From: Opitutales bacterium
Lineage (GTDB): Bacteria; Verrucomicrobiota; Verrucomicrobiia; Opitutales; PNEW01
NCBI GenBank assembly: GCA_965219535.1
Contig: CBDCNV010000002.1
Coordinates: 690,001-722,000 of the forward strand
Reading direction: 5' to 3'
Length of the DNA stretch: 32,000 nucleotides
A program made the position numbers and the translations under genes. The first letter of the stretch is position 1. Each line of letters begins with the position of its first letter. The notes under the pieces are model-generated. The model was not told where the DNA came from and did not search any database. It worked only from the letters and a program-made list of their open reading frames with translations. Below are positions 1 through 31,980 of this stretch, piece after piece.

Positions 1-425
1 CCACTGGCCTTGACGCTGCGGTAAAGGCGTCCGCTTTTTTGAGCGCTTCTGCGCCGACGCTTTTGCACCAGTCCCGCACGTTCCAAGACCCGTTTCACGC
101 TCGAGTCTGAGGGGGCCTTCCCGTAACGCCTCTGGTAAAGCTCGCGGATCTTGTAGGGGCCCCACGTCGGGTGATGATGCTTGAGTTTGATCAGCGTACA
201 TACTACTGATTCGGATAGTTCCTGAACACTTCCATGCGGTCGGCGTGAGCGCTCGTGCAACCCCTCCATCCCTTCGCTCAGGAAGCGCTTCTTCCATTTA
301 TACCCTGTCGGTCGGCTGATCCCGTAGTCTTCACACAGCTCGTTCATCTTTACTCCCGGTTGCATCGATTCCAGGGCGAATTGGTATCTTTGGTCCATTT
401 TATTTGTTTCCTTCCATGACATCAT
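1..425 (-). CDS. DDE transposase, N-terminal part (partial, continues beyond window start)
   Basis: Identical to the first 425 nt of the 29425-30615 transposase gene. ATG (as CAT) at 423-425. Confidence 0.9.
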   Translation of the reverse strand, partial: MMSWKETNKMDQRYQFALESMQPGVKMNELCEDYGISRPTGYKWKKRFLSEGMEGLHERSRRPHGSVQELSESVVCTLIKLKHHHPTWGPYKIRELYQRRYGKAPSDSSVKRVLERAGLVQKRRRRSAQKSGRLYRSVKAS

Positions 426-511
426 ACCCCTTACTTAGCATCCTTCTTTCTTTGGCAATCTGTAAAGGATGTCCTGAACCTTTTGTGTAAAGAATGTCTT
501 GAACCTATACC
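1..511 (-). mobile_element. IS481-family insertion sequence, copy 1 (truncated by window edge; its left/5' terminus is at 511)
   Basis: By manual comparison, the reverse complement of 1-511 is base-for-base identical to 29339-29849 of copy 2. It carries the terminal motifs CAAGACATTCTTTACAC and CAGGACATCCTTTACAG. Confidence 0.9.
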
Positions 512-3030: not shown

Positions 3031-6000
3031 ATGAATCGTGCTTTAAAATACCTCGGCCTTCTTCTCCTCACGGGCTGTTGTTTTTTCGGCTTCTTGTATT
3101 TCTGGAGTGATGTCTTAAAGCCGGTACTGGAGGAGGACCCCATTCGCTATAGTCCGGAGGTACTCGAGTATACGGATGAGTTAAGAGACGTTAGTTTTAC
3201 GGCGGAAGATACCTATAAAATACAGCGGGATGTCGATTACCGCGAGGGTGAATCCGGCCGTTGGTATCCCAAGAGTGAGTCGCCCATCCTGGCTGAACTC
3301 GTAGAGGAGGGTAAGCTTCCATCGGTGGCTGAGCGCGTGGGGACCGAGCCGGTTGTGCTTGAGGGGGTGGACGGTATCGGCAATTATGGGGGCACCTGGT
3401 TTCGCGCCGAATGGTCGCAGTACAATATAAGTCTCATCGAAAGCTTTCTCTCCGGGGCAACCCTTGTTCGCTGGTCACCGCTTGGCTACCCGATTGTTCC
3501 GCATGTGGCCAAAGGATGGGAATCCAGCCCTGATAAGAAGGAATGGACTGTCTCTCTACGCAAAGGAATGAAATGGTCGGATGGTCATCCTTTCACCGCT
3601 GACGACATACTCTTCTGGTACTACCAGGAAGTAAAACTTGATTATATCGAAGACACTTTACGGGGAGATTGGATGACCGTGGGTGGCGCGCAGGGAGAAA
3701 TTGTAAAAATAGATGATTACACCCTGAAATTTATTTTTCCAAAATCCTATGGGGTGTTCATCGAACAACTGGCGCGTGCCTGGTGGTTTTGTTCACCTCG
3801 TCACTACATGGAAAAGTATCATCCGGACCTCGGCAACGATGAACTCATTGAAAAGACGATGGATGCGAGAAGACTGCCATCACGTAAGAGTTTATATCTT
3901 TTACTGAAAAAGTGGTTCAACCCTGAACACCCGCGACTCTGGCCCTGGGTATATCGCAATTACAAAGCTAATCCCCCCCAGATTTTTGTGCGCAATCCCT
4001 ACTACTGGGCGGTCGACACTGTCGGTAACCAGCTTCCCTATGTAGATAGAATGCATTACGATATAAAAAGCCAGAAGTTCATACCTATCGTCGCCGCAAA
4101 TGGAGCCGTTACCTTTTCCATATATATCATGGATTTATATTACACCATGCTAATGACTGAACGCGAAGCGGGTGGATACGAAGTCTATCACTGGTTTCCC
4201 GCTTCCCGCTCGCGGTATCAGGTTTATCCAAATTTCAATTTCCGGATCGATCCCGATGATCCGGTGACCCAAATGAAGCATGACCTCATTAACGACAAAC
4301 GATTTCGCCAGGCACTGTCCCTCGCGATCAATCGACGACAGATAATCGACACGGTATACAATGGAGTGGGAGAGCCCGCGCAGTTATCGCCCGGAAGAGA
4401 ATCGTATTTTCACCATGAAAAACTTCACAAGAGCTTCACCGAATTTGCGCCCGAGAAGGCTGACATTTTACTTGATGCCCTCGGGTTGACATTCAGGGAT
4501 TCAGAGGGTTACCGCACATTCAAGGATGGAACACGCATGGTCTGGTATTATACCCTGTCACAGGGAGAAGACGAGGGGCCTACGGAACTCATCCTCGAGG
4601 ACTGGGGTCACGTAGGCGTTCGCTTTATCCTGCGACAACCATCGCATGCCCTCTTTAATCTTGAAGTAAAAACCGGCAAATTGGAGTTCTCCGTTGGACC
4701 AGGAAACAGTGAATACAGCCCCGTAATGGGTCCAATGTTTTTTGCCGGTTTAACGACAACTCAAGCTTACGGCTATTGGAGTTGGTATATGCGAGGTGGC
4801 CTCTATGGAAATCCTGAAGCTGTGGAATTAGGAGGTATCGAACCGCCGGAGGATCATCTTCTGCGAAGGGCCATGGAACTGGTCGAAGAATCATACGGCG
4901 CCATGAACCGTGAAGAGCAGCGGGATATTTTCAATAAACTGTTCGACATCGCGGCGGAGAATCTCTGGACGATAAATATAACTACTCCACCCCCACATCC
5001 AGTGGTCGTAAAAAACGGATTTAAAAACGTGCCCCGCAATGCTCTCTATGGAGCGCGTTTCAGTCCACCGGCTTTGACCGGTATCGAAACTTACTTTTTC
5101 GACGAACCTTATGATTCACCGGGTGCCATTGCCCAGATCAAAAATGAAATGATCGAAGTGACCCCCGCTCCTTACGGCACCGATGAAGACGAACTGCAAT
5201 TGAACAGTTACGAGCGATTGGTATGGTTAATAAAAAACCTATTACTGGGCATCGCGGTTTGTGGCATTATCATGGTCGGGGTACGGCATCCGTATGTAGG
5301 CAGGCGATTACTTATCATGATACCGACCCTTCTCATTATATCGGTGATCTCTTTTTTTATCATCCAGCTGCCACCGGGTAGTTACGTCGAGACCAAGATC
5401 TTTGAGCTGCAGTTAAGAGGGGGACCAATGGCTATCGATGAAGCTAAAGAACTGCGCGAGATTTATCATCTAGATAAACCCTTCCCCGAACGTTACTCCC
5501 GCTGGCTCGGATTGAACTGGTTTACTTCCTTTGGACGAAAAGACCAGGGTTTACTTCAAGGCTACATGGGGCTGTCGATGGAGAACCAGAGCACGGTTAA
5601 TGAGTTAGCAGGTAATCGTATTCTCCTCACCTTTCTTATATCGTTAGGAACTATTCTCTTCACTTGGACACTGGCGCTTCCAATTGGAATTTATTCGGCC
5701 GTGCGGCAGTATACTTTAAGTGATTATTTCTTTACCTTGATAGGTTTCATCGGGATGAGTATCCCCAGTTTTCTTCTCGCCTTGATCCTTCTTTACTGGA
5801 GCCGGGAGTACCTGGGGATAAACATTTCAGGATTGTTTTCGCCTGACTATGCGGCTCAACCTGAATGGACGCGGGGTAAGATTATTGATATGTTGAAACA
5901 TATCTGGGTGCCGATCGTTGTCCTTGGTGTCACGGGAACGGCAAGCATGATTCGCATCATGCGCGGGAACTTGCTCGATGAATTAAAAAAACCCTACGTT

Positions 6001-6433: not shown

Positions 6434-6468
6434 CCCGAACCCTGAACCGTGAACCGTGAACCCCGAAC
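6434..6468 (+). repeat. Heptamer array (CNNGAAC)x5, complement of GGTTCAG family
   Basis: cccgaac cctgaac cgtgaac cgtgaac cccgaac. The last unit overlaps the stop codon (6468-6470) of the minus-strand PhyH gene. Confidence 0.85.
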
Positions 6469-7265
6469 TACTTAATCCTCATCACCTGTTGCGCATGATC
6501 GGAGAGACTGTCCCGGAGTTCGCAAGGTATCATATCTTCCGTAGGTTCAAGTGTCTTACCGCTGTAAAACCAGGGACGGCTGAAATGCATGATGAGATCA
6601 TCGCGTGGGTGATCGGAGACGTTGGGCGTTCCGCGGTGGAGAAGACGGAGGTCAAAGAGCCAGATGGATCCGCGTTTCACATTGAGACGAACCGGGTAGT
6701 AGTTGCCGATGCGAGTCGTGTCTTCGCCCAGAACGTGATCGAACCATTTTCCTCTTCTTCCATTGATTAGAGAATGACAAACTTCCCTGTCCGCGATGTA
6801 ATGACTGCCGGGCAGCACTTCAATGCTGCCATTCTCCTCCGTCGAATTGACGAGGGGAATGCGAAGGGCGAGCATGATCGGCGGAGTCATCAATCCCGGA
6901 AAGAGAGGTTCCACATCGCGATGCCACCGCTGATAGACGGCGCCGGGAAACGGCGTGAGCGAACTGTAATCTTGGAAGATATATTCTTCCCCGAGAAAAC
7001 TTTCAAAAAGTTTAACGAGGGTGGGATGATCAAAGATCGCCGCGTCGACAAAGGGACGCTCAAGAGGAATATCGATGGCGTAACGGTTCGGTCCCCGGTT
7101 GGGATTGTCCCCCTGCCTTTCAATTTCCCGGTCACGAATCGGCAACCACGCTGCGTTGATCCGATCGAGAATGTCAATGGGGATAAAGTCTTCAATTACG
7201 ATAAACCCGTTAATCTTTAATTCTTCAATCAGTTGATCGCTATTTATCTCTGCCACTTCGCGCAT
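6468..7265 (-). CDS. PhyH-family Fe(II)/2-oxoglutarate dioxygenase
   Basis: 265 aa with WHRDVEP (HxD), LPGSH and a distal LLHRGTPN. N-terminus typical of phytanoyl-CoA dioxygenase-like proteins. Confidence 0.8.
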   Translation of the reverse strand: MREVAEINSDQLIEELKINGFIVIEDFIPIDILDRINAAWLPIRDREIERQGDNPNRGPNRYAIDIPLERPFVDAAIFDHPTLVKLFESFLGEEYIFQDYSSLTPFPGAVYQRWHRDVEPLFPGLMTPPIMLALRIPLVNSTEENGSIEVLPGSHYIADREVCHSLINGRRGKWFDHVLGEDTTRIGNYYPVRLNVKRGSIWLFDLRLLHRGTPNVSDHPRDDLIMHFSRPWFYSGKTLEPTEDMIPCELRDSLSDHAQQVMRIK

Positions 7266-7274
7266 GAGTGATAA

Positions 7275-7298
7275 GTCAAAAGGTCAAAAAGTCAAAAG
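7275..7298 (+). repeat. Octamer array (GTCAAAAR)x3
   Basis: gtcaaaag gtcaaaaa gtcaaaag, 9 nt from the ATG of the minus-strand gene. It reads TTTTGAC in that gene's sense direction. Confidence 0.9.
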
Positions 7299-7403
7299 GG
7301 AATGCGCTTTTGCGCGAATAAGGAAAATGGTTCACGTTAACCGTTCATCCGTATTTTACTATTTCTTTTAACCGCATATTCAGGCATTCTCACTTCCATT
7401 TCC

Positions 7404-7419
7404 TTTTTGACTTTTTGAC
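7404..7419 (+). repeat. Octamer array (TTTTTGAC)x2
   Basis: tttttgac tttttgac, 7 nt upstream of ATG 7427. Inverted with respect to 7275-7298 across the divergent spacer. Confidence 0.9.
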
Positions 7420-7426
7420 TTTCCCC

Positions 7427-8188
7427 ATGAGTGGACTGGCAGCAATACTATACACGGTTAGGGATTTTACCCAGACTCCTGCCGCGATGGTTGAAACGCT
7501 CAATAAAGTTAGGTCTATCGGCTACAACCATATTGAGTTAGCAGGACAAGGCCCCATTGATCCGAAAGAATTAAAACAGATGGTGGATGGTGAAGGTTTG
7601 AGTATATGTTCAACCCATACGAACTTAAACCGATTGCGCGATGACCTCGATACCGTTATTGAGGAGCATCAACTCTGGGAGTGTAAGCATATTGCGATTG
7701 GAGGATTGCCAAAGGAAGACCATAATGAAGATGGTTATAAACGGTTCGCGAAAGAAGGTTCCGAGATTGGGCGAAAACTTAAAGAGCAGGGATTATCCTT
7801 CAGCTATCACAACCACTGGATGGAACTTGATAAATACAATTCCCGGACCGGAATGGAGATACTCGCTGAGGAGAGTGATCCTGAAACTTTTTTCTTTGAG
7901 ATTGATACCTGCTGGCTTCAGTTTGCCGGCGGAGATCCATCGACATCGATAAGAAAATTAAAAGGGAGACAACACCTGGTCCACTTCAAGGACATGATAT
8001 TACCTTCTACCGATAATAATGCGACTCTTGAAGTAGGTGAGGGCAGTCTGGACTTCCCATCGATTATTGAGGCATGTAAAGACGCCGGTGTTCAGTGGCA
8101 CATCATCGAACAGGATTTTTGTCCCGGTGATCCTTTCGAAAGCATAGCCAAAAGCTATCGCAATCTAAAAGAAATGGGGATGAATTAG
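7427..8188 (+). CDS. Sugar phosphate isomerase/epimerase (xylose isomerase-like TIM barrel)
   Basis: 253 aa from ATG 7427 (the track start at 7415 is TTG, inside the repeat). Motifs IELAGQG, FSYHNHWMEL, FEIDTCW and HFKD. Confidence 0.75.
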   Translation: MSGLAAILYTVRDFTQTPAAMVETLNKVRSIGYNHIELAGQGPIDPKELKQMVDGEGLSICSTHTNLNRLRDDLDTVIEEHQLWECKHIAIGGLPKEDHNEDGYKRFAKEGSEIGRKLKEQGLSFSYHNHWMELDKYNSRTGMEILAEESDPETFFFEIDTCWLQFAGGDPSTSIRKLKGRQHLVHFKDMILPSTDNNATLEVGEGSLDFPSIIEACKDAGVQWHIIEQDFCPGDPFESIAKSYRNLKEMGMN

Positions 8189-8328
8189 TCAAAAAGTCTA
8201 TTCCCCTTTTGTCATTGCGAGGGAGGCGTAGCCAACTGCGGCAAACCAGAAAGTCTTATCAATATAATTCTGAACTGTTAAACTTGAACCATCTTCACCT
8301 GACACTTGATTCCTTTTGACTTTTTGAC
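8188..8328 (+). repeat. MITE-like whole-spacer element with inverted GTCAAAAAGTC / GACTTTTTGAC termini and GTCATTGCGAG core
   Basis: gtcaaaaagtctattccccttttgtcattgcgag...ccagaaag...ccttttgactttttgac. Homologous in layout and sequence to 10555-10671. Its termini touch both flanking stop codons. Confidence 0.7.
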
Positions 8329-9149
8329 TAATCTTCAAACAGCGAGGGGAAGTGCCGGTAGGGGTCACCGGGTTCTGAGAAGAGGATCTTCTGACGCGGG
8401 GTCAGTTCCGTGTTCGTGGGCGGTTCTACCAGTTTTCCGGACCACGAAATATGTGACACACAATATTTATAGAGGAGGGTTCTTCGATCGTGCTTTCCGA
8501 TCCAGGGTGTAGTTCCATGGATTAATGCCTCGGTAAATAAAATAACGGAACCTGCGGGAGCGGAGGGGATTACTACACAAGGTGCTTTTTCTGGTGCATC
8601 AAATATCTCTTGTGGCAATCGGTAGTTACTCTTATGACTGCCGGGGATGCAATAAATCCCACCAGAATCGGGTCCAGTGTCAGTTAGATTCCAACTAACG
8701 ACGACAAACCCATTGAGAATTTCATTGTCACGAACATGATAATATTCTCCTGGCCGAGCCTCAGATTTTAAATAATGTCCGGGTAAACCTTTCTCACGCC
8801 CTACTGTCTTTGATGCGCCATAGTCTGCGTGTAGTTCACCACCTGGCGTCCCTTCACGTAATTGAAAGCCGAATAAACGATCAAGACGAAAGCAGTCACC
8901 CAATCTGGATTGAAGGATCGGCATGATCTTGGGATGATCGAGTAAATCACAGAATGGCTTCCCCCATTCTAAAAAACCAGATCCCCCTTCGGGTGCTCGA
9001 CCAAAGTTTTTTCTTTCTCCAGTCATTGGTATATCCTGCTTATCGAGCAGTGCATTTAAAGTGGCGACTTCCTCTTTGCTCAGGACATTTTCAAATACAA
9101 GGTAACCCTGCAAATCGAATAAGTACTGTTGCAATTCCAGATCGCTCAT
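8328..9149 (-). CDS. PhyH-family Fe(II)/2-oxoglutarate dioxygenase
   Basis: 273 aa. N-terminus LQQYLFDLQGYLVFENVLSKEEV, then LHADYG (HxD), CIPGSHKS and a distal ALIHGTTPW. Confidence 0.8.
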   Translation of the reverse strand: MSDLELQQYLFDLQGYLVFENVLSKEEVATLNALLDKQDIPMTGERKNFGRAPEGGSGFLEWGKPFCDLLDHPKIMPILQSRLGDCFRLDRLFGFQLREGTPGGELHADYGASKTVGREKGLPGHYLKSEARPGEYYHVRDNEILNGFVVVSWNLTDTGPDSGGIYCIPGSHKSNYRLPQEIFDAPEKAPCVVIPSAPAGSVILFTEALIHGTTPWIGKHDRRTLLYKYCVSHISWSGKLVEPPTNTELTPRQKILFSEPGDPYRHFPSLFED

Positions 9150-9152
9150 GAT

Positions 9153-9316
9153 CAGGGTTCAGGGTTCAGGGTTCAGGGTTCAGGGTTCAGGGTTCAGGGT
9201 TCAGGGTTCAGGGTTCAGGGTTCAGGGTTCAGGGTTCAGGGTTCAGGGTTCAGGGTTCAGGGTTCAGGGTTCAGGGTTCAGGGTTCAGGGTTCAGGGTTC
9301 AGGGTTCAGGGTTCAG
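9153..9316 (+). repeat. Perfect heptamer tandem array (CAGGGTT = GGTTCAG register), about 23.4 copies
   Basis: 164 nt with no substitution seen. It starts 3 nt from the ATG (9147-9149, minus strand) of the PhyH gene. Confidence 0.98.
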
Positions 9317-9453
9317 AAATTTTCTTTATTTCATGTAGTCTATAATTAGTAGAAGGTCAAAAGTGTAATACGCATTAGCGTTTCCCCCCTCTTGTGCCTT
9401 TGGAAGATCTCGCTACGCTCGGTAGTGGCTATCACTTTTCTTAATATCCTCGC

Positions 9454-9481
9454 CTTCGACTTTCGACCTTAGACTTTTGAC
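9454..9481 (+). repeat. Heptamer array (YTTNGAC)x4
   Basis: cttcgac tttcgac cttagac ttttgac. It contains the stop codon and the last four codons of the minus-strand lactonase gene. Confidence 0.9.
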
Positions 9482-10482
9482 TCCACAAATAATATCCACA
9501 ACGACTCTAACCCGATGTCATAGGTCTTTAGTGGGTCGAGTAGTCCGGACTCGAGGATTCGGTAGGAGGCGAGTTTACCGGAGGTCTGTCCGCCGGCGTA
9601 AAGAAATTTTCCTGTTGGATCGATATTGAAAGCGCGGGGAACGGACTCCGTCGGTTGCTGACCGAGTGCGGTCAGCTCACCTGAAGTCGGATCGATGGCA
9701 TAACAGGCGATGCTGTCATGCCCGCGATTACTGACGTAGACATGACTACCCGAGGGGGCGATATGGATCTGAGCGCAGGTGTTATCTATGTTGAATCCTT
9801 CGGGGAGAGTAGATAGAGTCCGGGATAAGGATAACGTTCCGTGTGTTGGGTCGAACTTGTAAGTGCTGATGCTGCTTCCCTGTTCGTTGGAGACGTAGAC
9901 CATGTCCAGCTTCGGGTGAAATTCAAAGTGGCGCGGACCGACCCCAGCCGGGGGGGAAACACTGGGAATGTCGTTTGGTGTGAGTAGTCCGGAATCGGAA
10001 TCGAAATGAAACTGAAAGATCGCGTTGCTCTCTCCAACATGGGGGACAAAGGCGTAGGTGTTTGAACTGTCCGTCTGGATGAAGTGCGCTTTTATCGCTG
10101 TGGATATCTGGCAGTTGGGTTTCTCAATTAGTGTCCCATCTTCATTGATTCGATGACTGGCGGTAAAACCTCCGCCGTAAGAGGCGGAGAGAAGATTTTT
10201 TCCCGACCGATCGACGAAGAGATAACAATGATCATCATCGATCGAAACACTGCTCGTCTCCGAAAGCGCACCGGTCTTGTGGTCAATAGCGAGGGAGGTC
10301 GTCCGCTTGATTCCTCTTCGGCACACGTAGATATGCTGCTCATCCGGAGCCATCGCGAGCGGTCCCGGAATACCGGAGAGGGGGAATGTGTCGAGCAGTT
10401 TTAGATCCCCGTTTGTGGGGTCCATATCAAAGATGAGAATTTTGTCTTCGGCGGAGACGGTGATATAACAATAGCAAGGCAT
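9469..10482 (-). CDS. Lactonase family protein (7-bladed beta-propeller, 6-phosphogluconolactonase Pgl/YbhE-like)
   Basis: 337 aa. N-terminus YITVSAEDKILIFDMDPTNGDLKLL with repeated blade-like segments (HIYV, YLFV, YAFV, VYVSN, VYVSNRG, LYAGG). Confidence 0.7.
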   Translation of the reverse strand: MPCYCYITVSAEDKILIFDMDPTNGDLKLLDTFPLSGIPGPLAMAPDEQHIYVCRRGIKRTTSLAIDHKTGALSETSSVSIDDDHCYLFVDRSGKNLLSASYGGGFTASHRINEDGTLIEKPNCQISTAIKAHFIQTDSSNTYAFVPHVGESNAIFQFHFDSDSGLLTPNDIPSVSPPAGVGPRHFEFHPKLDMVYVSNEQGSSISTYKFDPTHGTLSLSRTLSTLPEGFNIDNTCAQIHIAPSGSHVYVSNRGHDSIACYAIDPTSGELTALGQQPTESVPRAFNIDPTGKFLYAGGQTSGKLASYRILESGLLDPLKTYDIGLESLWILFVESKV

Positions 10483-10505
10483 GATGGGGAGAGCGCTGAC
10501 GCGCG

Positions 10506-10565
10506 TTTTAGGTGTTAGGTTTTAGGTGAAGAGATTCGAAAGTCGAAAGGCGAAAGTCAAAAGTC
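10506..10565 (+). repeat. In-register mixed heptamer array (TTTTAGG/TGTTAGG then NNTCGAA/AGTCAAA)
   Basis: ttttagg tgttagg ttttagg tgaagag attcgaa agtcgaa aggcgaa agtcaaa agtc. The 7-nt register is kept while the unit type changes. Preceded by GCGCTGACGCGCG (10493-10505). Confidence 0.85.
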
Positions 10566-10671
10566 TTTTTCCTTTTGTCATTGCGAGAAGCAACGCGACG
10601 AAGCAATCCAGAAAGATTGAAATAATCACTATATAGATTGTATGTATTATCTAAGGTTTTGACCTTTTGAC
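10555..10671 (+). repeat. MITE-like whole-spacer element (GTCAAAAGTC ... GACCTTTTGAC termini, GTCATTGCGAG core)
   Basis: gtcaaaagtctttttccttttgtcattgcgagaagcaacgcgacgaagcaatccagaaag...ggttttgaccttttgac. Paralog of 8188-8328. Confidence 0.7.
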
Positions 10672-10677
10672 TACCTT

Positions 10678-11526
10678 ATGCCACTTTCAGAGAAACAAAT
10701 TACCCAATACAAGGAGGATGGTTTCATTCACCTTCGAGGTGTTGTACCTGGAGATGTCATAGATTTGTCGCGAACGATTCTCAAACGCTGGGTCGATGAA
10801 ACGATTCAACAATGGGTTGACGAAGGTCTGCTCACTGACCCGTTTCATGACCTCGATTTTCATGTCCGATTATTACAGGCATGGGAGCAAGCCGGCCGAC
10901 CAAAGTATAGCCGAAGCCCAAGAAGAGATCTGGTCAGCCGAGAGACTTTTGACTTCTTGCGTCATTCAACACTCATCGATCTCGCTGAAGCGCTACTTGG
11001 CACATCGGAGATCTCCTTGCATGGGATATTTAATGCCCGTCCTAAACTTCCCGACCAGGTTTGGACGGACACGCCCTGGCACCAGGACGCGCAGTACTAT
11101 CAAGACGCGGAACACACCCATGTTGTGAGTATCTGGATTCCTATGCAGAGGGTGGCCGAAGAGAACAGTTGTCTGCAGGTCGCGCGTGGCCATCACAGGA
11201 GCCAATTGCATGAACGCTGGAATGACCCGGTTAGCGGGTTTGTTGGGCTCTCACTCGATATTCAAAAAACACTCGATGGCCAATCTGTTGAAATGAATGT
11301 CGGCGACGCATTCTGCTTCACGCAACTAACCCCGCATCGGGCACTCCCCAATAAGTCTAACGCCGTTCGCTGGGCAATGGATCTGCGTTTTGAGGCGACC
11401 GAACACGCTACCGAAATAGGAAAAGCGCGCGGCTTCATTGTTCGTAGCCCATCCAATCCCGCAAGCATCACATCCTTTGAAGACTGGATTAAGAAATGGG
11501 AGGGACAGCCGGCGGGAACGTACTGA
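10678..11526 (+). CDS. PhyH-family Fe(II)/2-oxoglutarate dioxygenase
   Basis: 282 aa. N-terminus QITQYKEDGFIHLRGVV, then PWHQDAQYY (HxD), VARGHH and a distal LTPHRALPNKS. Confidence 0.8.
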   Translation: MPLSEKQITQYKEDGFIHLRGVVPGDVIDLSRTILKRWVDETIQQWVDEGLLTDPFHDLDFHVRLLQAWEQAGRPKYSRSPRRDLVSRETFDFLRHSTLIDLAEALLGTSEISLHGIFNARPKLPDQVWTDTPWHQDAQYYQDAEHTHVVSIWIPMQRVAEENSCLQVARGHHRSQLHERWNDPVSGFVGLSLDIQKTLDGQSVEMNVGDAFCFTQLTPHRALPNKSNAVRWAMDLRFEATEHATEIGKARGFIVRSPSNPASITSFEDWIKKWEGQPAGTY

Positions 11527-17146: not shown

Positions 17147-17178
17147 ATTTTGACTTTTTGACCTTTTGACTGTTTGAC
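17147..17178 (+). repeat. Octamer array (NTTTTGAC)x4
   Basis: attttgac tttttgac cttttgac tgtttgac, ending 8 nt before ATG 17187. Confidence 0.9.
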
Positions 17179-17186
17179 TCACTTCC

Positions 17187-18805: not shown

Positions 18806-18896
18806 CAGTGAACAGTGAACAGTGAACAGTGAACAGTGAACAGTGAACAGTGAACAGTGAACAGTGAACAGTGAACAGTGAACAGTGAACAGTGAA
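18806..18896 (+). repeat. Perfect heptamer tandem array (CAGTGAA)x13
   Basis: 91 nt, exactly 13 units, starting 6 nt after the stop codon at 18798-18800. Confidence 0.98.
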
Positions 18897-20420: not shown

Positions 20421-20474
20421 GTCTAAAGTCAAAGGTCGAAAGTCAAAGGTGGGGAGAATACAGTGAACAGTGGG
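20421..20474 (+). repeat. Heptamer arrays (GTCNAAR)x4 followed by (CAGTGAA)x2
   Basis: gtctaaa gtcaaag gtcgaaa gtcaaag ... cagtgaa cagtggg. Preceded by GCGCTGACGCGCG (20396-20408). Confidence 0.85.
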
Positions 20475-20517: not shown

Positions 20518-20643
20518 TGTCATTGCGAGGCTGCTTGTCAGCCGTGGCGATCCAGGGGAATGTCGGTAATGCAACGAATGCTACCTGGAATGGAAGATGT
20601 CGCTGCGTTCGGTAGCCACGAAACTTCGCTCCTCGCAATGACA
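20518..20643. repeat. Inverted pair of the GTCATTGCGAGG motif enclosing about 100 nt
   Basis: tgtcattgcgagg (20518-20530) pairs with cctcgcaatgaca (20631-20643). The loop contains the GGAAGATGTCGCTGCGTTCGGTAG motif, related to 9403-9428 and 23986-24012. Confidence 0.8.
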
Positions 20644-20680
20644 ATAGAAAAAGAAAGCAGAGCAAAAAAGATTGAATTTA

Positions 20681-20753
20681 GGCGGAACACGGTGTCCCTA
20701 CCGCGTTTAATTAATTAATAAAAAGAAGCGCGCTAGGGACAGCCCGCTCCACC
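20681..20753 (-). repeat. X-family element, minimal form (two hairpins around an AT-rich spacer)
   Basis: ggcggaacacggtgtccctaccgcgtt, then taattaattaataaaaa, then gaagcgcgctagggacagcccgctccacc. Ends 6 nt before ATG 20760. Confidence 0.8.
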
Positions 20754-20759
20754 TTTAAA

Positions 20760-21335: not shown

Positions 21336-21344
21336 TTATATGAT

Positions 21345-21504
21345 CTCGCGGACGCGATCAGCCGTCGTCCCGCCGTTAGCGGACTATGGCCGACAGGCAC
21401 CACGCGTTCCTCCAAAAGAATTTAAAACATGGAGGGTCACGCTCCGTCGTGACCGGTGAGTGAAAGGGTTATATTTTAACGCGGTAGGGACACCGCGTTC
21501 CACC
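21345..21504 (+). repeat. Cluster of X-family hairpin modules
   Basis: 21345-21413 is a divergent long-insert arm (gcggactatggccgacaggcaccacgcgttcctcc). 21431-21460 is the hairpin ggtcacg..cgtgacc. 21478-21504 is aacgcggtagggacaccgcgttccacc. Confidence 0.7.
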
Positions 21505-21564
21505 TTATCTCAATACTTTCCCGACACCCACCTGTCCTGAGCTCAGTCGAAGGGAACCCTGACT

Positions 21565-23835
21565 CTAATTACCAACACGACGAGCATGAGACTCGATATA
21601 TACGTCGTTGGACAATCCTTTCAAATAATCATAACCGTAATGATTAAGAAAAGCCAATGCACCGAGATCGGCGGGATCACGAATCGCGGTTGCCCATGCT
21701 GAAAGAGCGGTTTTTAAAAAATCTAATGACTGATTCAATAGCTTGTCAGCTTCCGCCATATTGCGGTCAAAGTCGGTTGCCTTATTGTCATTGCGCGCTT
21801 GTTGAGCGCTGTCATAATAAGTCCGCGCGCTTCTAATCGCTTGCACCGACTCGATGTATGCGACACTGAATTTTACCTGCCCCAGCAATTGCTCCACATA
21901 GCGCTTTCCCTCCGGTCGGCTTTTGGCGTATGCCGATTCCAATAGCGGAAGTGTTGTCCGGTACTGGTTGGCGAGCTCATTCCAATTTGGATCCGGTCCC
22001 GAAGAATCAGTCCAATGTTTACGAACCACCGCAGGAACAGGGAATATTAAACCGGATGCTAAGAGTTCTGCCTTGATCGTTGTTTCACCCAGTATCGAAT
22101 AAACATTAAGCATCTCCTGAACTACAGCCGCACCACAAACATTACTTACCTGGTCACGGTAAATCGCTTCCGGTGTAATGTCAGCTGACCAGGATGATTG
22201 GGCGAGATATGCCGTTCCCACTTCCAGCTTGGTGACGAGGAAATTCCGGCCGAAAAAACCGGTGACCTTATATTTTTTCATCGCCTCAAATATTCGGTGA
22301 AGTGAAGGCACCGTTACTTGCGGTAAAATCCCAATGTTATCGTCAGCCAGCGTGGTCATCGGCCCAACCCGCATCGATGACTTGGCGGCAAAAGCGAGCA
22401 TCTCGGTACGTTTAGCCGCTAATGAGGGAAAGTAATCCATCTGCATCTGAAGCATTATTCGACCGCCAAATATTTTTTCCATAACCGGGTAGAATTCGTC
22501 ACTGTGGGTGCTGGCAATGATCGTGGCATCGGGATTAGCGGTTCCTTCAAATACCTGCTCCTCATTGATGAGCTTATCTAAGAGATGAGCGTAGGCGATG
22601 GAGGCCTTTAGCTCTGCGACAGGTCGCTCACCCTGTCGAACGCCCTGAGGAAGCGTATTAGCTTTTGCAGACTCAATCATTTCCTCTAATTTGAAATCTG
22701 ACTCGAGTTCATACTTGCAGTTCAGTTCATGCCAAAAATCCAAATACTCCTCGCCCGTATTAGGCATCTCCTTCTGGTAGATACCATAGTAGTCGACTTC
22801 CGGATAGGTATTGATCGTGGTGCGGATTATTAACTTATTCAATTCTATGACGACAGGGTTTTCCGGGGAGAGGTAGGGAAATGCGATCGGGTCCACCCCA
22901 ACTTCTTCAACGCCAAGTCGTCCACTGTAAGTTCCTTTCATGTGTTCTTCAGGAACATAGGTGTGATCAGACCACTCCGGTAAGCGCCTGTTGAATTCAT
23001 CGGTGAACTGGTTAATAATGAACATGAGCCCGGTCTCCATGCCACGACTTTTAGCGTGCGTGAATATACGATGCAGCATTTCAGTAGCGACGCTGTTTCG
23101 CTCTTCATAATTCTCAGCCTTCTCCATGTCCGGGTTCATGTATTCAGATTTACCCTGAAATAATTCTTTGCCGATCGTCTGTGAGTGAATGGGAAGCTTC
23201 CAACCGTAGTGAATAACACCGGTAGTTTTCTTTTGCCCGCGATACTCGTAGTGAACAAAAGGCTGGAAGGGATATATTTGCAGGTAAAACACATTGAACT
23301 TCATTTTAGCCAGTTGATCTATCAAATGCCGATAATCGTCGATGCCGAAAAAGACTAACGATGTCGCGAGATCGTTAACGCCGCGATAGGAGCGAAAGTG
23401 TAGTTGTGGTTCTATTACCACATCCAGTTCATCCGGGGGAAAAGAGGGAGGATTTTCCGGCAGTACATCTTTCTCCAAGAGAAAGCAAACACCCAAGTGT
23501 TTTATGAAATCATAAACCGCCCAAAGCGTCGCCCTTGCGCTGCCGCCACCGAGAATAAAAATGGTTGTGCCATCAATTACTCCTCGCTTAAGGACGATTC
23601 CCTGTTCACTCACATCGGGCCATCCTGTTATGCCTGAAACGTCATTTACCGCTGGGTTCGACTTCGGATTCCCTATGAAGAAAGCAATTTTAGCGTTAGC
23701 TTCTATACCCGTTACCGGGTGAGTATTGATCCCGTAAATACTTTGCAGGTATCGACACAATTCATTGGCCGCATACACTTCCAATTCATCTGCCGCCGGA
23801 CCGGTTACGACCGATACGTTGTAATCGTTAGTCAT
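21565..23835 (-). CDS. Hypothetical 756-aa protein, possibly glycoside-hydrolase-like
   Basis: Long ORF with a clean ATG and no signal peptide. The N-terminal segment VVTGPAADELEVYAANELCRYLQSIYG resembles N-terminal domains of some carbohydrate-active enzyme families. I cannot assign a family by eye. Confidence 0.3.
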   Translation of the reverse strand: MTNDYNVSVVTGPAADELEVYAANELCRYLQSIYGINTHPVTGIEANAKIAFFIGNPKSNPAVNDVSGITGWPDVSEQGIVLKRGVIDGTTIFILGGGSARATLWAVYDFIKHLGVCFLLEKDVLPENPPSFPPDELDVVIEPQLHFRSYRGVNDLATSLVFFGIDDYRHLIDQLAKMKFNVFYLQIYPFQPFVHYEYRGQKKTTGVIHYGWKLPIHSQTIGKELFQGKSEYMNPDMEKAENYEERNSVATEMLHRIFTHAKSRGMETGLMFIINQFTDEFNRRLPEWSDHTYVPEEHMKGTYSGRLGVEEVGVDPIAFPYLSPENPVVIELNKLIIRTTINTYPEVDYYGIYQKEMPNTGEEYLDFWHELNCKYELESDFKLEEMIESAKANTLPQGVRQGERPVAELKASIAYAHLLDKLINEEQVFEGTANPDATIIASTHSDEFYPVMEKIFGGRIMLQMQMDYFPSLAAKRTEMLAFAAKSSMRVGPMTTLADDNIGILPQVTVPSLHRIFEAMKKYKVTGFFGRNFLVTKLEVGTAYLAQSSWSADITPEAIYRDQVSNVCGAAVVQEMLNVYSILGETTIKAELLASGLIFPVPAVVRKHWTDSSGPDPNWNELANQYRTTLPLLESAYAKSRPEGKRYVEQLLGQVKFSVAYIESVQAIRSARTYYDSAQQARNDNKATDFDRNMAEADKLLNQSLDFLKTALSAWATAIRDPADLGALAFLNHYGYDYLKGLSNDVYIESHARRVGN

Positions 23836-23840
23836 GCTTT

Positions 23841-23958
23841 GGTTCAGGGTTCAGGGAGAAAGATATACGATTTCTGATATCTGATATACGATGTAGATTC
23901 AATATCTCGCACATCAAACGTCGGATATCAAACGTCGGATATCAGATAGAATGATATA
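23841..23958 (+). repeat. Mixed 7/14-nt arrays: (GGTTCAG)x2.3, (GATATNN)x5, (ATCAAACGTCGGAT)x2
   Basis: ggttcag ggttcag gg, then gatatac gatttct gatatct gatatac gatgtag, then atcaaacgtcggat twice (23913-23940). Confidence 0.85.
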
Positions 23959-23968: not shown

Positions 23969-24022
23969 GGTTCAGGGTTCAGGGTGGAAGATGTCGAGCT
24001 ACGCTCTCGGTACAGGGTTCAG
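23969..24022 (+). repeat. F-element copy 1 (GGTTCAG x2 + GGTGGAAGATGTCGAGCTACGCTCTCGGTACAGGGTTCAG)
   Basis: 54 nt, identical to 26086-26139 by manual comparison. Confidence 0.9.
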
Positions 24023-24146
24023 GGAAAATTGTACCTTACGAAATTTCAATTAAACATTCCATCTAAAACCGTTACTGAGTCCTTCCATTCTCTTTTTCTC
24101 TTCCTACCGGGAAAATCAGTTATATATAATGAAAGATTAAAAAGAC

Positions 24147-25200: not shown

Positions 25201-26037
25201 ATGAGCACAGTATTAATTACAGGGGCCAGTGGCTTTATCGGTCGGGCGCTTGCACCCGCGATGGCTGCAAATCACAACGTGCTTTGCATGAGTCGAAAGA
25301 ATCCAGAGTTAGATCTCCCGTGGGTTCAAGGTGACTTCGGTTCTTTCGAAGATCTGCGAAAACTCGATGGACATACTATCGATGTGGTCATTCACCTCGC
25401 CGCGGTAACCGGCGGTTGCACCGAGCGCGAGGGAATGCTTGTCAATGTCGAGGGCTCGCGCTGCCTGATGCGCTACCTGATGGACACAGGTTGCCAAAAG
25501 TTTGTTTTAGCCAGTTCAATTGCGGCAGTCGGTTTTCAGAATAAGGCTTTTAGACCATTGCAACTTCCCATGCTGGACGAACACCCCTGCCTCGACCGCG
25601 ATGGCTATGGGTTTTCAAAATTTATGATGGAAGAAATTACCAAGTACCACCAGCGCCAGAATGAATCAATTGATGTGATTAACCTGCGCCTGTCTTCCGT
25701 TGGTAGAGATGACATAATGCCCGACCTCAAAAAGCCGGCCCCGCTGACCGCGTGGGCCCTCGGTGGTATCTCGTACATGGTGCGCAGCGATGCCATCCGC
25801 GCCTTCGCCACCGCGGCCGAAGCGCCGTACAAATCGGGAGTGCGCACGCTGAATGCTACAGCACCACGGGCCTGGGCTGCGGTACCGGTCGCCGAATTAC
25901 TGGAGAACTGGTGGGGGAGTGAAGTCGACTTGTCCCATTTTAAACAGCCCGGCCACGAGTACGATGCCGTCTATGACGTCAGCCGCATCGCAAGTGAGCT
26001 CAGCTTCGTAGCCGAAAAAACGGAGAGCATGCACTGA
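25201..26037 (+). CDS. NAD-dependent epimerase/dehydratase (extended SDR)
   Basis: 278 aa with VLITGASGFIGRAL and the YxxxK motif YGFSK. The 21-nt gap after the dehydrogenase gene suggests a two-gene operon. Confidence 0.8.
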   Translation: MSTVLITGASGFIGRALAPAMAANHNVLCMSRKNPELDLPWVQGDFGSFEDLRKLDGHTIDVVIHLAAVTGGCTEREGMLVNVEGSRCLMRYLMDTGCQKFVLASSIAAVGFQNKAFRPLQLPMLDEHPCLDRDGYGFSKFMMEEITKYHQRQNESIDVINLRLSSVGRDDIMPDLKKPAPLTAWALGGISYMVRSDAIRAFATAAEAPYKSGVRTLNATAPRAWAAVPVAELLENWWGSEVDLSHFKQPGHEYDAVYDVSRIASELSFVAEKTESMH

Positions 26038-26043: not shown

Positions 26044-26099
26044 TGTTAGTTTTTAAGTTAATAAGGTTCACGGTTCACAGTTCAGGGTTCAGGGTTCAG
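26044..26099 (+). repeat. In-register heptamer array (TTAAGT-type changing to GGTTCAC/GGTTCAG)
   Basis: tgttagt ttttaag ttaataa ggttcac ggttcac agttcag ggttcag ggttcag, beginning 7 nt after the stop. Confidence 0.85.
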
Positions 26100-26139
26100 G
26101 GTGGAAGATGTCGAGCTACGCTCTCGGTACAGGGTTCAG
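26086..26139 (+). repeat. F-element copy 2
   Basis: 54 nt, identical to 23969-24022. Confidence 0.9.
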
Positions 26140-26205: not shown

Positions 26206-26297
26206 AAAACCTAAATCATAAAACCTAACACGCGCGTCGGCGCTTCCCCGTTCTTCCTTTTTGACCTTTTGACTTTTTGACATTTTGACATTTTGAC
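26206..26297 (+). repeat. Pyrimidine-type arrays: (AAAACCT-like)x3, junction box ACGCGCGTCGGCGC, (NTTTTGAC)x5
   Basis: aaaacct aaatcat aaaacct, then aacacgcgcgtcggcgc, then tttttgac cttttgac tttttgac attttgac attttgac. Ends 3 nt before the stop at 26301-26303. Confidence 0.9.
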
Positions 26298-26300: not shown

Positions 26301-27020
26301 CTATTTCGTCACCATCGGAGAATTCAGCGGGTTCAAAATATATTCACTTTCACTAGCCAGGTGGCCGATTTGATTATGGTGAAGAATGCGTGTGCGTTCG
26401 GGGGTTTGATGGATCTTACTGAATGCTGCATTATAGTGTGTGAATCGATCCGCGTCATCATTTGGCGGTAAACCGAGTAAAGTACTAATAAGAGTAGATC
26501 CAAAAGCGCCATGTGAAACCGCGGCTACTTTTTCATCGTCTACGGGGTGGTATCGATTCAGATGGGCAATGAAGCTAAGGGCATTTTCGTAGGCAACCTG
26601 AACCCAGTTGTTTCCATGTGATGGATCGGGATCGATACTTTCCCATTCGATGAAACACCAGCCATCGTCTGTTACGTCTTCCGGCAATACAACATTGGCA
26701 CAGACTTCGCGCATTTCCGATCGCTTCAACCCGGGCAATACCGCTTTCTCTTCAAAATATGGACCACCCCAAACTCCGCCCCACTCATGGAGCCCAACAT
26801 AAACGTGAGGATCAAGGTTGAGAAACTCGCCTATGATTGTGGCGGTTTGTAAAGTTCTCAACATCGGGCTGCAGTAGAGCCGTGTTATACCCAGCCCACT
26901 GAGCGCTTCACCCGTTCTCCCTGCCTGTTCCACTCCCAGGTCTGTCAACGGAGGTTCAGTACTGCGTTCATCTCCCCGGTTATTGGTCGATTGTCCATGA
27001 CGTATGAAATAAAATTCCAT
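26301..27020 (-). CDS. Histidine phosphatase family protein (phosphoglycerate mutase-like)
   Basis: 239 aa with the N-terminal catalytic RHG motif (MEFYFIRHGQSTNN), LTDLGVEQA and a later SHG. Confidence 0.8.
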   Translation of the reverse strand: MEFYFIRHGQSTNNRGDERSTEPPLTDLGVEQAGRTGEALSGLGITRLYCSPMLRTLQTATIIGEFLNLDPHVYVGLHEWGGVWGGPYFEEKAVLPGLKRSEMREVCANVVLPEDVTDDGWCFIEWESIDPDPSHGNNWVQVAYENALSFIAHLNRYHPVDDEKVAAVSHGAFGSTLISTLLGLPPNDDADRFTHYNAAFSKIHQTPERTRILHHNQIGHLASESEYILNPLNSPMVTK

Positions 27021-27057
27021 GATGAGTAAAGTATAAGTTAAGAGGGTACAGGTGAAT

Positions 27058-27106
27058 CAGTGAACAGTGAACAGTGAACAGTGAACAGTGAACAGTGAAC
27101 AGTGAA
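27058..27106 (+). repeat. Perfect heptamer array (CAGTGAA)x7
   Basis: 49 nt, 38 nt from the ATG (27018-27020) of the minus-strand phosphatase gene. Confidence 0.95.
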
Positions 27107-27272
27107 CAGCAGTCTGTGTCGAGACAACGGGATCTGAAGAGTCTAGCTGGATTATAGGAAGAATGGAAGTTTGGATGAATGGGGATTAACTAAATACTTA
27201 ACCTGAATGTAACCGAAAGAGCTTTCCAGCATTCCACTATTCCAACGATCCATGCATCCAGTATCTTCCCGC

Positions 27273-27300: not shown

Positions 27301-28059
27301 CTAGTATAAACTCATGAGTCCTTCTGTCTCCGGCGGTGCCTTCGACTCGAATGCTTCGGTGATCCAACGGGCTTCGGATGGTCTGCCCGGATTTCTGTAG
27401 GCATAGACCACCGCCCATCGCGTGTCGCTGTCCGGCTTTCGGGGTGTAACGCCATGGGCTGCATGTGTCCACATCACGATCACCGTTCCGGCAGGAGCAT
27501 TCAACGGTATTATTTCCAGCGGTCTCCCTGTCGCGGGATGTTTTTTACCCGCCATCCAGCAGCTTAACAGTTCTTCATCGCTCTGTGCCCTAATTGATTT
27601 GTCAAGGTAGAGATGACTGCCGGGCACTACCTTCAGGCCGGCATCATCCGCCGTAAATCCATTGACATAGAAAAATATTCGAATGAACCCCAGATCGGGA
27701 TTGTCTTCTCCGTATTCATGGCTGTGCCAAGTATTCGCCGCGGCACCTCCCCGACGGTTGAGTGTCACGCAGTGGTCAAACCGGATATCTTCTCCAAGGA
27801 TGGACCTGGCCATCGCGAGAATTTGTGGATGTGCAATCAAGCTAGCGAGATAATCGTTATACTCTGCAGCGTACATATTCGGTTGAGGTTGATATTCATT
27901 TTCATCAAACAGCGTCTGAACACAGGTTAATGCATCGGTCAGTTTTTCACACGCCTGTGGCGTTAGTAAACCGGGTAGCATGAGTTGTCCATCGCGATCG
28001 AGGAGTGCTTTTTCTTCCGCGGTAATGGTATGCGGGTGGAAAATAGGATCGGGGGGCAT
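27301..28059 (-). CDS. PhyH-family oxygenase-like protein with non-canonical WHSHE metal motif
   Basis: 252 aa with VVPGSHLY and a distal WTHAAHGVTP as in PhyH proteins. WHSH occupies the position of WHxD. Confidence 0.7.
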   Translation of the reverse strand: MPPDPIFHPHTITAEEKALLDRDGQLMLPGLLTPQACEKLTDALTCVQTLFDENEYQPQPNMYAAEYNDYLASLIAHPQILAMARSILGEDIRFDHCVTLNRRGGAAANTWHSHEYGEDNPDLGFIRIFFYVNGFTADDAGLKVVPGSHLYLDKSIRAQSDEELLSCWMAGKKHPATGRPLEIIPLNAPAGTVIVMWTHAAHGVTPRKPDSDTRWAVVYAYRNPGRPSEARWITEAFESKAPPETEGLMSLY

Positions 28060-28084
28060 GCTTAGGGAAAGGGGTCGTGGATAT

Positions 28085-28133
28085 TAGTGAACAGTGGAAA
28101 CTCAGTAGCAGTTTTAGGTTTTTGATTTTAAGT
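28085..28133 (+). repeat. Degenerate in-register heptamers (TAGTGAA CAGTGGA ... TTTAGGT TTTTGAT TTTAAGT)
   Basis: Begins 26 nt from ATG 28059 (minus strand). The same module order is seen at 31770-31824. Confidence 0.7.
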
Positions 28134-28138
28134 AGTGA

Positions 28139-28283
28139 GGTGGAGCGGGCTGCCTGACGGCCATAGCTTAACACTGCACAGCGACGGCTGTTCCCTAGCA
28201 CGCTTCTTTTTTTATAACTTATAACAAACGCGGTAGGGAACAACCTTCGCCAAGGCTATGGCTGTCAGGCATCGCGTTCCACC
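28139..28283 (+). repeat. X-family element, long form (both hairpin loops carry inserts)
   Basis: Reads ggtggagcgggctg[cctgacggccatagcttaacactgcacagcgacggctgt]tccctagcacgcttc. Then an AT-rich spacer and aacgcggtaggga[acaaccttcgccaaggctatggctgtcaggcat]cgcgttccacc. Confidence 0.85.
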
Positions 28284-28373
28284 ATTTTTAAATTATAAAT
28301 CTATATTATCTTTCTTGTGCTTCTTACCTGCCGGCTATCTCTTCTTTTTCTTACCCTTTTCTGCAATCCTAAT

Positions 28374-29246: not shown

Positions 29247-29288
29247 ATCAATTGTCGATTTGGAAGATGTCGGACTTTGCCCTCTGTA

Positions 29289-29309
29289 CGATTTTCGATT
29301 GTCGATTAA
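29289..29309 (+). repeat. Heptamer array (CGATTNN)x3
   Basis: cgatttt cgattgt cgattaa. The complement type (AATCGNN) occurs at 31981-32000. Confidence 0.75.
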
Positions 29310-29338
29310 CCCTATCTTTCTTTCAACCACTGAACCGT

Positions 29339-31824: not shown

Positions 31825-31930
31825 GGTGGAGCGGGCTGCCTGCTGGCCATAGCCTTGGCGAAGGTTGGTCCCTAGCACGCTTCTTATTTAATAACTTATA
31901 ACAAACGCGGTAGGGACACCGCGTTCCACC
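31825..31930 (+). repeat. X-family element, intermediate form (insert only in first hairpin)
   Basis: Reads ggtggagcgggctg[cctgctggccatagccttggcgaaggttgg]tccctagcacgcttc. Then ttatttaataacttataacaa and aacgcggtagggacaccgcgttccacc. Confidence 0.85.
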
Positions 31931-31980
31931 CTTTTTTGAATTATAAATAATTTTGTGTTTCTTGTGGCTAACTTTTCTTC

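Follow-up and report, generated by a model that had tools for sequence, protein, structure and literature searches.

A length-variable CTGAACC heptamer array at the start codon of a PhyH-family dioxygenase gene in an Opitutales bacterium

In a 32,000-nt stretch of the genome of an Opitutales bacterium (hereafter called the "window"), a perfect tandem array of the heptamer CTGAACC ends just before the start codon of a gene encoding a PhyH-family Fe(II)/2-oxoglutarate (2OG) dioxygenase. The array differs in length between near-identical genomes, arose specifically in the lineage of the window's strain, and belongs, by its position and orientation, to a class of heptamer repeats lying at gene boundaries. 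The array is probably a slippage-driven, hypermutable simple sequence repeat (SSR) of this class, which would provide PhyH with an unstructured leader devoid of a Shine-Dalgarno (SD) sequence, and would have at most a graded effect on the gene rather than serving as a dedicated ON/OFF switch. The transcription of the array, its function as a leader, and a small or absent effect on expression are suggested by the sequence, as described below.

Tandem Repeats Finder (TRF) delimited the array at 9152-9316, as 165 nt of period 7 with 23.6 copies, 100% matches, and no indels (score 330). The unit reads CTGAACC on the sense strand of PhyH and GGTTCAG or GGGTTCA on the + strand, and the latter form contains a G run of at least three. 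A 14-mer composed of two GGTTCAG units matches the window 30 times, as compared to 0.01 matches expected from shuffles. A first-pass annotation of this DNA had described a perfect GGTTCAG array at 9153-9316 (164 nt, 23.4 copies), which is the same array minus one base, and had placed it 3 nt from the ATG of PhyH. The adjacency holds, while the gap is 2 nt. The start codon itself is sound, because all of the PhyH orthologues share this ATG and the DNA similarity to the relatives stops there. Since TGA is present in each CTGAACC unit and the period is seven, the three sense frames are all closed, and no minus-strand open reading frame (ORF) in the ORF list of the window crosses the array. As the annotation had concluded, the array therefore cannot be an N-terminal coding extension of PhyH. 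No Rfam family was detected in the window at the gathering threshold, and the junction between the ATG and the array had 0 matches in a metagenome scan.

Relatives of the window were reached through cluster members and through the window's DUF7305 protein, while exact-protein look-ups with the window's PhyH, lactonase, and third PhyH sequences gave no match. The DUF7305 protein led to the contig L165, an independent assembly of the same lineage from another sample, which is collinear with the window over 1930-23016. In these 21.1 kb, L165 differs from the window by 4 single-nucleotide polymorphisms (SNPs) and 5 indels, and all of the indels are located in simple repeats (Table 1). One of them lies in the array at PhyH, which consists of 22 full units in L165 and 23 in the window, with identical flanks. 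The recent or ongoing slippage presumed in the first-pass annotation is thus directly observed at the array.

The same behavior is found at other repeats. Between the window and L162, which belongs to the same lineage, there are 2 SNPs in 19.9 kb and 3 indels (14, 30, and 7 nt), every one of which falls inside a heptamer tract or at its margin; relative to the window, L162 lacks 30 nt (about 4 units) of the CAGTGAA array at 18806. In a sister lineage, 12 SNPs separate the contigs L158 and L159 over 20.8 kb. The CTGAACC array between their sulfatase and FG-GAP genes, a region without such an array in the window, has about 17 copies in L158 and about 9 in L159 (a difference of 56 nt, or 8 units), and the TTCACTG units that follow the sulfatase stop codon number about 6 and about 10, respectively. 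A one-unit change also occurs among L148-L151, at the tract orthologous to 6434-6468. The comparison of L001 with L002 (92% relatives) is uninformative, with 1 SNP and no repeat indel. Repeat-unit indels are therefore as frequent as SNPs or more so, at 5′ and 3′ positions alike.

Where did the array come from? Ten contigs with 97.8-98.7% PhyH identity (L148-L157) lack it, and all of them have (TTTTGACN)4-TTTTAAATTCCCCC-ATG at this position. The orthologues at 82-92% protein identity (L001, L003, L123, L124, and L125) also lack a GGTTCAG array, and have three to four TTTTGACN octamers at a distance of 12-14 nt from the ATG. Between the window and L148, the coding DNA is 91-98% identical (PhyH itself has 9 synonymous and 5 nonsynonymous codon differences), while the interiors of the intergenic regions are unalignable. 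The gene-proximal repeat edges are kept at all boundaries except for the 5′ end of PhyH, where the alignment stops at 9150. Because the alignment breaks only at this boundary, the array and the distal 150 nt represent the derived state of the window's strain lineage. These alignments show that the array arose in this lineage only, where it replaced the ancestral (TTTTGACN)4 element. The single TTTTGACC unit upstream of the array could be what is left of the octamer element found next to the ATG in the relatives, or a weak -35 belonging to it.

A promoter scan of the array-less sequence of L148-L157 detected TTGACT-18-TAAATT, ending 5 nt before the ATG. This call is weak (9/12 matches, with 1 found as compared to 0.4 expected), although the spacing TTGACN-17/18-(T-rich hexamer)-5/6-ATG recurs, as judged by eye, in other PhyH orthologues. 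The array-less relatives may thus possess, on this weak indication, a sigma70-like element with leaderless-type geometry at the PhyH ATG. In distant PhyH orthologues (60% identity; L128 1-110 and L129 95-200), an 8-nt CTCACT(A/G)T tandem array lies upstream of the gene, and repeat-laden upstream regions therefore recur at the PhyH family in other taxa.

The array is one of many in the window, the intergenic regions of which are rich in 7- and 8-nt tandem repeats as determined by TRF. The GGTTCAG family occupies five sites (6434-6468 in the reverse orientation, 9152, 23841, 23969, and 26065), all of which are intergenic and which include both 5′ and 3′ gene ends. The TTTTGACN octamer forms tracts at 7275-7299, 7403-7422, 8314, 10655-10675, 17148-17179, and 26259-26297 of the window and at 2950-3000 of L148; these tracts abut start codons, and the reverse complement abuts stop codons. 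CTTTCGA and TTAGGTG tracts are present as well, and a short CAGTGAA tract is also found at 31770. On the + strand, the intergenic regions open with GGTTCAG, CAGTGAA, or GTCAAAAG units and close with their reverse complements. Therefore, genes of either strand are approached by CTGAACC, TTCACTG, or TTTTGAC, and are left by the complementary units. Overall, the repeats flank genes on both their 5′ and 3′ sides and also separate convergent genes, with several abutting start codons, and their neighboring genes are functionally unrelated (PhyH paralogues, a TIM barrel protein, a sulfatase, ADH, a phosphatase, and one protein of unknown function).

The heptamer is also found far outside of this lineage. 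A scan for GGTTCAG arrays of at least 4 units, with one genome per species, yielded at least 119 loci (L004-L122), and a tblastx comparison of the window with these loci matched only the array itself. All of the counts in this paragraph refer to the matches listed. Their labels cover at least 12 phyla, including Acidobacteriota, Planctomycetota, Lentisphaerae/Victivallales, Verrucomicrobiota/Kiritimatiellae, Desulfobacterota, and Gamma- and Betaproteobacteria, with Gemmatimonadota, Chlorobiaceae, Chloroflexota, Omnitrophota, Bacillota, Actinomycetota, and Bacteroidota as further labels. Most of the arrays contain 4-6 units, and 4 units are the most common (61 of 134, in a scan that took in only arrays of at least 4 units). 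The longest arrays have 33.7, 17, 15.9, and 13.4 copies, the first of which is in a Candidatus Moanabacter metagenome-assembled genome (MAG; L091 6632-6867), and the 23.6 copies in the window are in the extreme tail of the family. With the G-rich strand placed on top, ORFs of at least 100 aa taken as genes, and boundaries counted within 30 nt, 42 of the 95 tracts have a gene boundary only on the left (5′ of the G-rich strand) and 9 only on the right (binomial p=3e-6). The left boundaries comprise 35 starts of antisense genes and 25 stops of sense genes. When a start codon lies within 60 nt, it is located 0-4 nt away in 13 of the 49 tracts and 0-9 nt away in 19. Many intergenic regions consist of an array and its inverted copy (for example, in L004, L020, L030, L066, and L119), an arrangement with the potential to form long hairpins between genes. 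The 848 kb of these loci contain 129 seed arrays, together with 39 other perfect heptamer arrays from at least 24 unit families and 6 arrays of other periods from 4 to 12; period 7 is thus strongly favored.

The window sites at 9152, 23841, 26065, and 6434 obey the orientation rule of these tracts, in which the C-rich strand (CTGAACC) runs into the adjoining gene and the G-rich strand (GGGTTCA) runs away from it. A literature search for the CTGAACC/GGGTTCA unit retrieved only papers on eukaryotic telomeres, and no report of this unit in bacteria was found in the library searched.

How could PhyH be expressed across the array? The promoter scan predicted no sigma70-like promoter in or beside the array or in the window's lactonase-PhyH intergenic region, and no sense-strand terminator was predicted between the lactonase gene and PhyH. 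PhyH would be transcribed from further upstream, by either a weak promoter within 9317-9468 or read-through from the lactonase gene, which could transcribe both the array and PhyH. The PhyH mRNA leader would then hold about 165 nt of CUGAACC repeats. Such a leader would be G-poor and free of secondary structure, with stop codons in the three frames, and would end 2 nt before the AUG without an SD sequence, as would be usual in an SD-poor genome. In agreement with this proposal, the minimum free energy (MFE) of the sense-strand array RNA is predicted to be 0.0 kcal/mol. When 50 nt of the coding sequence are added to the leader, the only extra structure predicted is a 7-bp helix between the repeat and codons 13-15 (z=-2.3). 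The gain or loss of units would alter the length of the leader, and would at most tune PhyH expression gradually. One and the same process would operate at many 5′ and 3′ gene edges of the source genome.

Two candidate promoters within the array were considered and rejected. TGAACC resembles the -35 element recognized by extracytoplasmic function (ECF) sigma factors, but no unit spacing gives a plausible -10 element. For leaderless transcription from inside the array, the -12 to -7 positions would be TGAACC, which has 2/6 matches with TATAAT. The first-pass annotation had reasoned that the leader must consist of CUGAACC repeats or that transcription must start inside the array; the former is, if the gene is expressed, the most probable arrangement judging from the sequence, while the latter finds no support in this hexamer. 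The annotation had also stressed the lack of room for a ribosome-binding site (RBS). This is true for PhyH but not special to it. Under a lenient definition (-20 to -4), only 5 of the 21 window genes have an SD-like 4-mer, with none at PhyH, and several have repeats at their starts. A missing RBS is therefore the norm in the source genome.

Several points weigh against the view of the array as a gene-boundary SSR with at most a graded effect. L165 is a long-read assembly with 5x coverage, and a consensus error is conceivable; however, the exact unit-sized difference at the array and the parallel unit-sized differences at four other repeats argue against this. In the cross-phylum test, ORFs served as crude stand-ins for genes, and the phylum count is approximate, because MAG bins can be contaminated. 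A recognizable promoter was not found upstream of PhyH, and the gene might be silent in the window's lineage.

The array had been likened to the phase-variable promoter of a contingency locus, in which each unit gained or lost would shift the upstream elements by 7 bp, or about two-thirds of a helical turn. The structure of the locus does not bear this out. Since only 2 nt lie downstream of the array, there is no place for it between the -35 and -10 elements or in the gap separating an activator site from the core promoter, and the helical phasing is therefore irrelevant. There is no predicted promoter in or beside the array, and the same and similar heptamers occur after stop codons and between convergent genes, where they are equally variable. 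Moreover, PhyH is a metabolic dioxygenase, rather than a surface or restriction-modification gene. Among the hallmarks of contingency loci, the locus thus has the hypermutable SSR, while it has neither the placement in a reading frame or promoter spacing nor the specificity for surface, host-interaction, or restriction-modification functions.

A contingency locus of another kind, an expression rheostat, could still be envisaged, in which the array would reside in the 5′ untranslated region (5′-UTR) and its copy number would set PhyH expression heritably and reversibly, as in hmw1A. The polymorphic heptamer SSR lies directly upstream of the PhyH start, its perfect copies are far more numerous than the 4-6 units of most listed arrays, and there is a precedent in hmw1A, the expression of which is inversely proportional to the repeat number (PMC12721329, PMC8262952). 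Nevertheless, length variation in the same repeat families is just as great at 3′ ends and beside unrelated genes, the array RNA has no hairpin partner other than the 7-bp pairing described above, and PhyH, a metabolic enzyme, has three paralogues in its neighborhood. For the analogous class of heptamers in other bacteria, phase variation has been judged unlikely (PMC4692102). We therefore regard the rheostat as rather unlikely.

We also consider it unlikely that the array acts as a G-quadruplex (G4) element. In such a model, as many as five G4s would form in tandem on the (GGGTTCA)n template strand and an i-motif on its complement; these structures would act as an obstacle or modulator for RNA polymerase or as a landing site for G4-binding proteins, thereby insulating PhyH from lactonase read-through or regulating it. 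The G-rich strand has G3 tracts every 7 nt with 4-nt loops, and is predicted by ViennaRNA with G4 energies to form 5 tandem quadruplexes (-45 kcal/mol). The Plasmodium sequence (GGGTTYA)3GGG folds into a G4 that has a Tm of 64 °C in KCl (PMC3082875), and the GGGAATC and GGGGAYT repeats, which follow the same orientation rule, form G4 and i-motif structures in vitro (PMC4692102). However, the sister families CAGTGAA, TTTTGACN, and CTTTCGA occupy similar positions without G-runs, and G4 formation therefore cannot explain the general pattern in the source genome. Furthermore, the duplex DNA must open first, and there is no in vivo support for a G4 function in the bacterial class (PMC4692102).

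Little weight is likewise given to the bolder idea, prompted by the recurrence of the identical unit across at least 12 phyla and by its orientation and closeness to start codons, that CTGAACC/GGGTTCA marks a conserved sequence-specific system instead of being debris of slippage, either for SD-independent ribosome loading or reinitiation, or as a gene-boundary mark read by an RNA- or DNA-binding protein or through a G4/i-motif. If it were true, the copy number would be an evolvable expression rheostat, and the heptamer and TTTTGACN octamer families would be interchangeable modules.

It is also unlikely that the expansion simply displaced a promoter. According to this explanation, the array would have parted PhyH from a start-proximal promoter, leaving the gene silent or poorly expressed and decaying, and the array itself would be neutral or mildly deleterious. 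The sigma70-like element of leaderless geometry at the ATG of the relatives, which is absent from the window, would fit, as would the break in the alignment exactly at the ATG of PhyH and at no other boundary, and paralogues are available. In contrast, both array-bearing assemblies have the same intact PhyH ORF, and the promoter call in the relatives is weak. In addition, many genes in other phyla have an array 0-4 nt from the start codon, which would be odd if expression were abolished.

Finally, an assembly artefact, or a (GSGFRVQ)n peptide encoded by the + strand, is highly improbable: the independent L165 assembly has the array between the same flanks, related arrays are present in several high-coverage assemblies, and, although all three frames of the + strand read through the array without a stop, its two ORFs of 65-69 aa (9129-9338 and 9148-9345) are short, overlap the PhyH start in antisense, lack upstream signals, and would have their exit frame shifted by unit changes that are not a multiple of three, so that they are probably spurious.

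The features of the locus are summarized in Table 1. In the window PhyH, the Pfam domain covers residues 11-223 (profile positions 1-212). Four PhyH paralogues and a TauD dioxygenase are encoded within 6468-11526 and 27301-29351 of the window, and the dioxygenases are grouped with the lactonase, TIM-barrel enzymes, a sulfatase, GSDH, and a fused peptide-type ATP-binding cassette (ABC) binding-protein/permease. The gene set is a dense catabolic cluster. As judged by eye, the gene content resembles that of marine PVC-group bacteria.

Table 1. Genes, tandem repeats, and length differences at and around the PhyH array (window coordinates)
Feature	Position	Strand	Size	Basis or remark
PhyH-family Fe(II)/2OG dioxygenase gene, 273 aa, ATG 9147-9149	8328-9149	-		Pfam PF05721, E=3.8e-13
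Lactonase gene upstream of PhyH, same strand	9469-10482	-		Pfam Lactonase, E=2e-68
Unique distal intergenic part, lactonase stop to array	9317-9468	-		Identical in L165; unalignable to sister lineage
Single TTTTGACC unit, 38 nt upstream of array	9355-9362	-		Relatives' (TTTTGACN)3-4 at PhyH
(CTGAACC)23.6, perfect heptamer array, variable length	9152-9316	-		TRF and L165 comparison
Degenerate (CTGAACC)-family tract abutting stop of PhyH paralogue 6468-7265	6434-6468	+		TRF; one-unit polymorphism in L148-L151
(CTGAACC)2.3, 5 nt upstream of ATG of gene 21565-23835; second start-proximal copy	23841-23856	-		TRF
(GGTTCAG)-family, 5.4 copies, 27 nt after stop of gene 25201-26037	26065-26102	+		TRF
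(CAGTGAA)13, perfect, directly after sulfatase stop, variable length	18806-18896	+		TRF and relatives
(TTCACTG)8, 31 nt upstream of ATG of gene 26301-27020	27052-27109	-		TRF; one unit shorter in L162
(TTTTGACN)2.5 octamer abutting ATG (7427) of TIM-barrel gene	7403-7422	+		TRF; three units longer in L165
Indel, L165 vs window	7403		24 nt	Three octamer units, longer in L165
Indel, L165 vs window	Array at PhyH		7 nt	One heptamer unit, shorter in L165
Indel, L165 vs window	11533		14 nt	Two heptamer units
Indel, L165 vs window	18806		21 nt	Three CAGTGAA units; 10 in L165
Indel, L165 vs window	20472		1 nt	G run 20464-20472; G9 in window, G10 in L165

Other repeated elements accompany the tandem repeats. 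Several intergenic regions (23969-24032, 26080-26139, and L148 at about 5750-5820) share a conserved element, GGTTCAGGGTGGAAGATGTCGAGCTACGCTCTCGGTACAGGGTTCAG, which is about 60 nt long and consists of heptamer units around a short unique core. A core related to that of GGTTCAGGGTGGAAGATGTCGAGCTACGCTCTCGGTACAGGGTTCAG, GGAAGATCTCGCTACGCTCGGTAG, is located in the PhyH intergenic region at about 9395-9420. A repeat resembling a miniature inverted-repeat transposable element (MITE), TTTGTCATTGCGAGG...CCTCGCAATGACAA, is found at 8205-8250, 10570-10615, and 20520-20645 and in the upstream region of L124; its different loci in the relatives suggest a mobile intergenic filler. Palindromic elements resembling repetitive extragenic palindromes (REPs), GGTGGAGCGGGCTGCC...GCGGTAGGGA.A...GTTCCACC, are intergenic at 540-600, 20700-20755, 21336-21530, 28130-28290, and 31830-31935. 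A transposase gene of the IS481 family lies at 29425-30615, with a second, partial and inverted copy at the start of the window (1-511). In L164/L162 of the same lineage (L164 1-9000), the DUF7305 gene is flanked on its left by IS3-type transposases and other genes in place of the PhyH cluster, which marks a rearrangement.

What does the array at PhyH teach us? Close genomes present three upstream alleles of this gene, namely the octamer promoter-like element without the array, the array of 22 units, and the array of 23 units, which constitute a clean natural experiment. Whether such repeats are SD-less leaders, G4 elements, or neutral products of slippage, and why period 7 is favored, are questions that have now become testable. 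The identical unit with its strict orientation rule across phyla, the dominance of period 7, and the octamer-to-heptamer swap at PhyH are worth following. For annotation, the locus serves as a warning that a long start-proximal SSR is not automatically a phase-variation switch. Reports of heptamers at the edges of bacterial genes go back to the cyanobacterial STRRs, and a survey appeared in 2015.

Among the known systems, the telomere repeat of Plasmodium, GGGTT(T/C)A, includes the identical unit GGGTTCA and forms a G4 in vitro (PMC3082875). It is made by telomerase at chromosome ends, in contrast to the internal, intergenic bacterial arrays, and the likeness is chemical only.

The (ATCTTTC)n heptamers of hmw1A and hmw2A in Haemophilus influenzae lie in the 5′-UTR and change by slippage (PMC12721329, PMC8262952). 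For hmw1A, copy numbers of 11 and above are seen in nature (PMC12721329), to which the 23.6 copies in the window are comparable, and slippage changes the copy number in both cases. However, the hmw system is a locus-specific adhesin switch, which requires a long 5′-UTR hairpin with a G-rich region and RNase III (PMC12721329, PMC8262952), while the array in the window has no hairpin partner, belongs to a probably genome-wide family, and precedes a metabolic dioxygenase gene.

The STRR heptamers of Calothrix and Nostoc, which are cited in PMC4692102, comprise several families that are tandemly arranged in the intergenic regions of one genome. Their phylum differs from that of the window. By our own sequence comparison, we take the GGGGA(C/T)T unit of Nostoc to match STRR1, and STRR3, CAACAGT, is presumably one base away from the CAGTGAA family of the window in one rotation.

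The TAACTGA repeats described by MacGregor in 2015, from marine Beggiatoaceae, cyanobacteria, and Bacteroidetes, point at start codons, and their largest class ends 1 nt upstream (PMC4679880). They mostly lack a canonical RBS, have stops in all forward frames and open reverse frames, and are not predicted to form RNA structures; they reach up to 43 copies in some taxa, with a patchy distribution across phyla, and a translational role has been proposed as a hypothesis (PMC4679880). The array in the window is similarly oriented to the start codon, with a 2-nt gap, no RBS, closed forward frames, open reverse frames, and an RNA predicted to be unstructured. Unlike TAACTGA, which has no G-run, cannot form a G4, and is mostly start-proximal, the CTGAACC family of the window is also common after stop codons.

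The GGGAATC (Xanthomonas) and GGGGAYT (Nostoc) heptamers surveyed by Rehm et al. in 2015 are distributed genome-wide in intergenic regions, with 2-26 units, a preference for four, extensive length variation between close relatives, and neighboring genes of no particular functional class (PMC4692102). The array shares with them the heptamer with a run of at least three Gs, the rule of position and orientation, and the length variation (PMC4692102). Its family has five sites in the 32 kb of the window, none of them inside a gene, and further ones in the relatives. It differs in its unit, GGGTTCA, its taxon, its location 2 nt from a start codon, and its length near the top of the known range, and the source genome also has G-poor sister families (CAGTGAA and TTTTGACN) with the same placement. 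Thus, the array at PhyH most likely represents a new unit, in new taxa and of extreme length, within a known and functionally unexplained class of gene-boundary heptamers.

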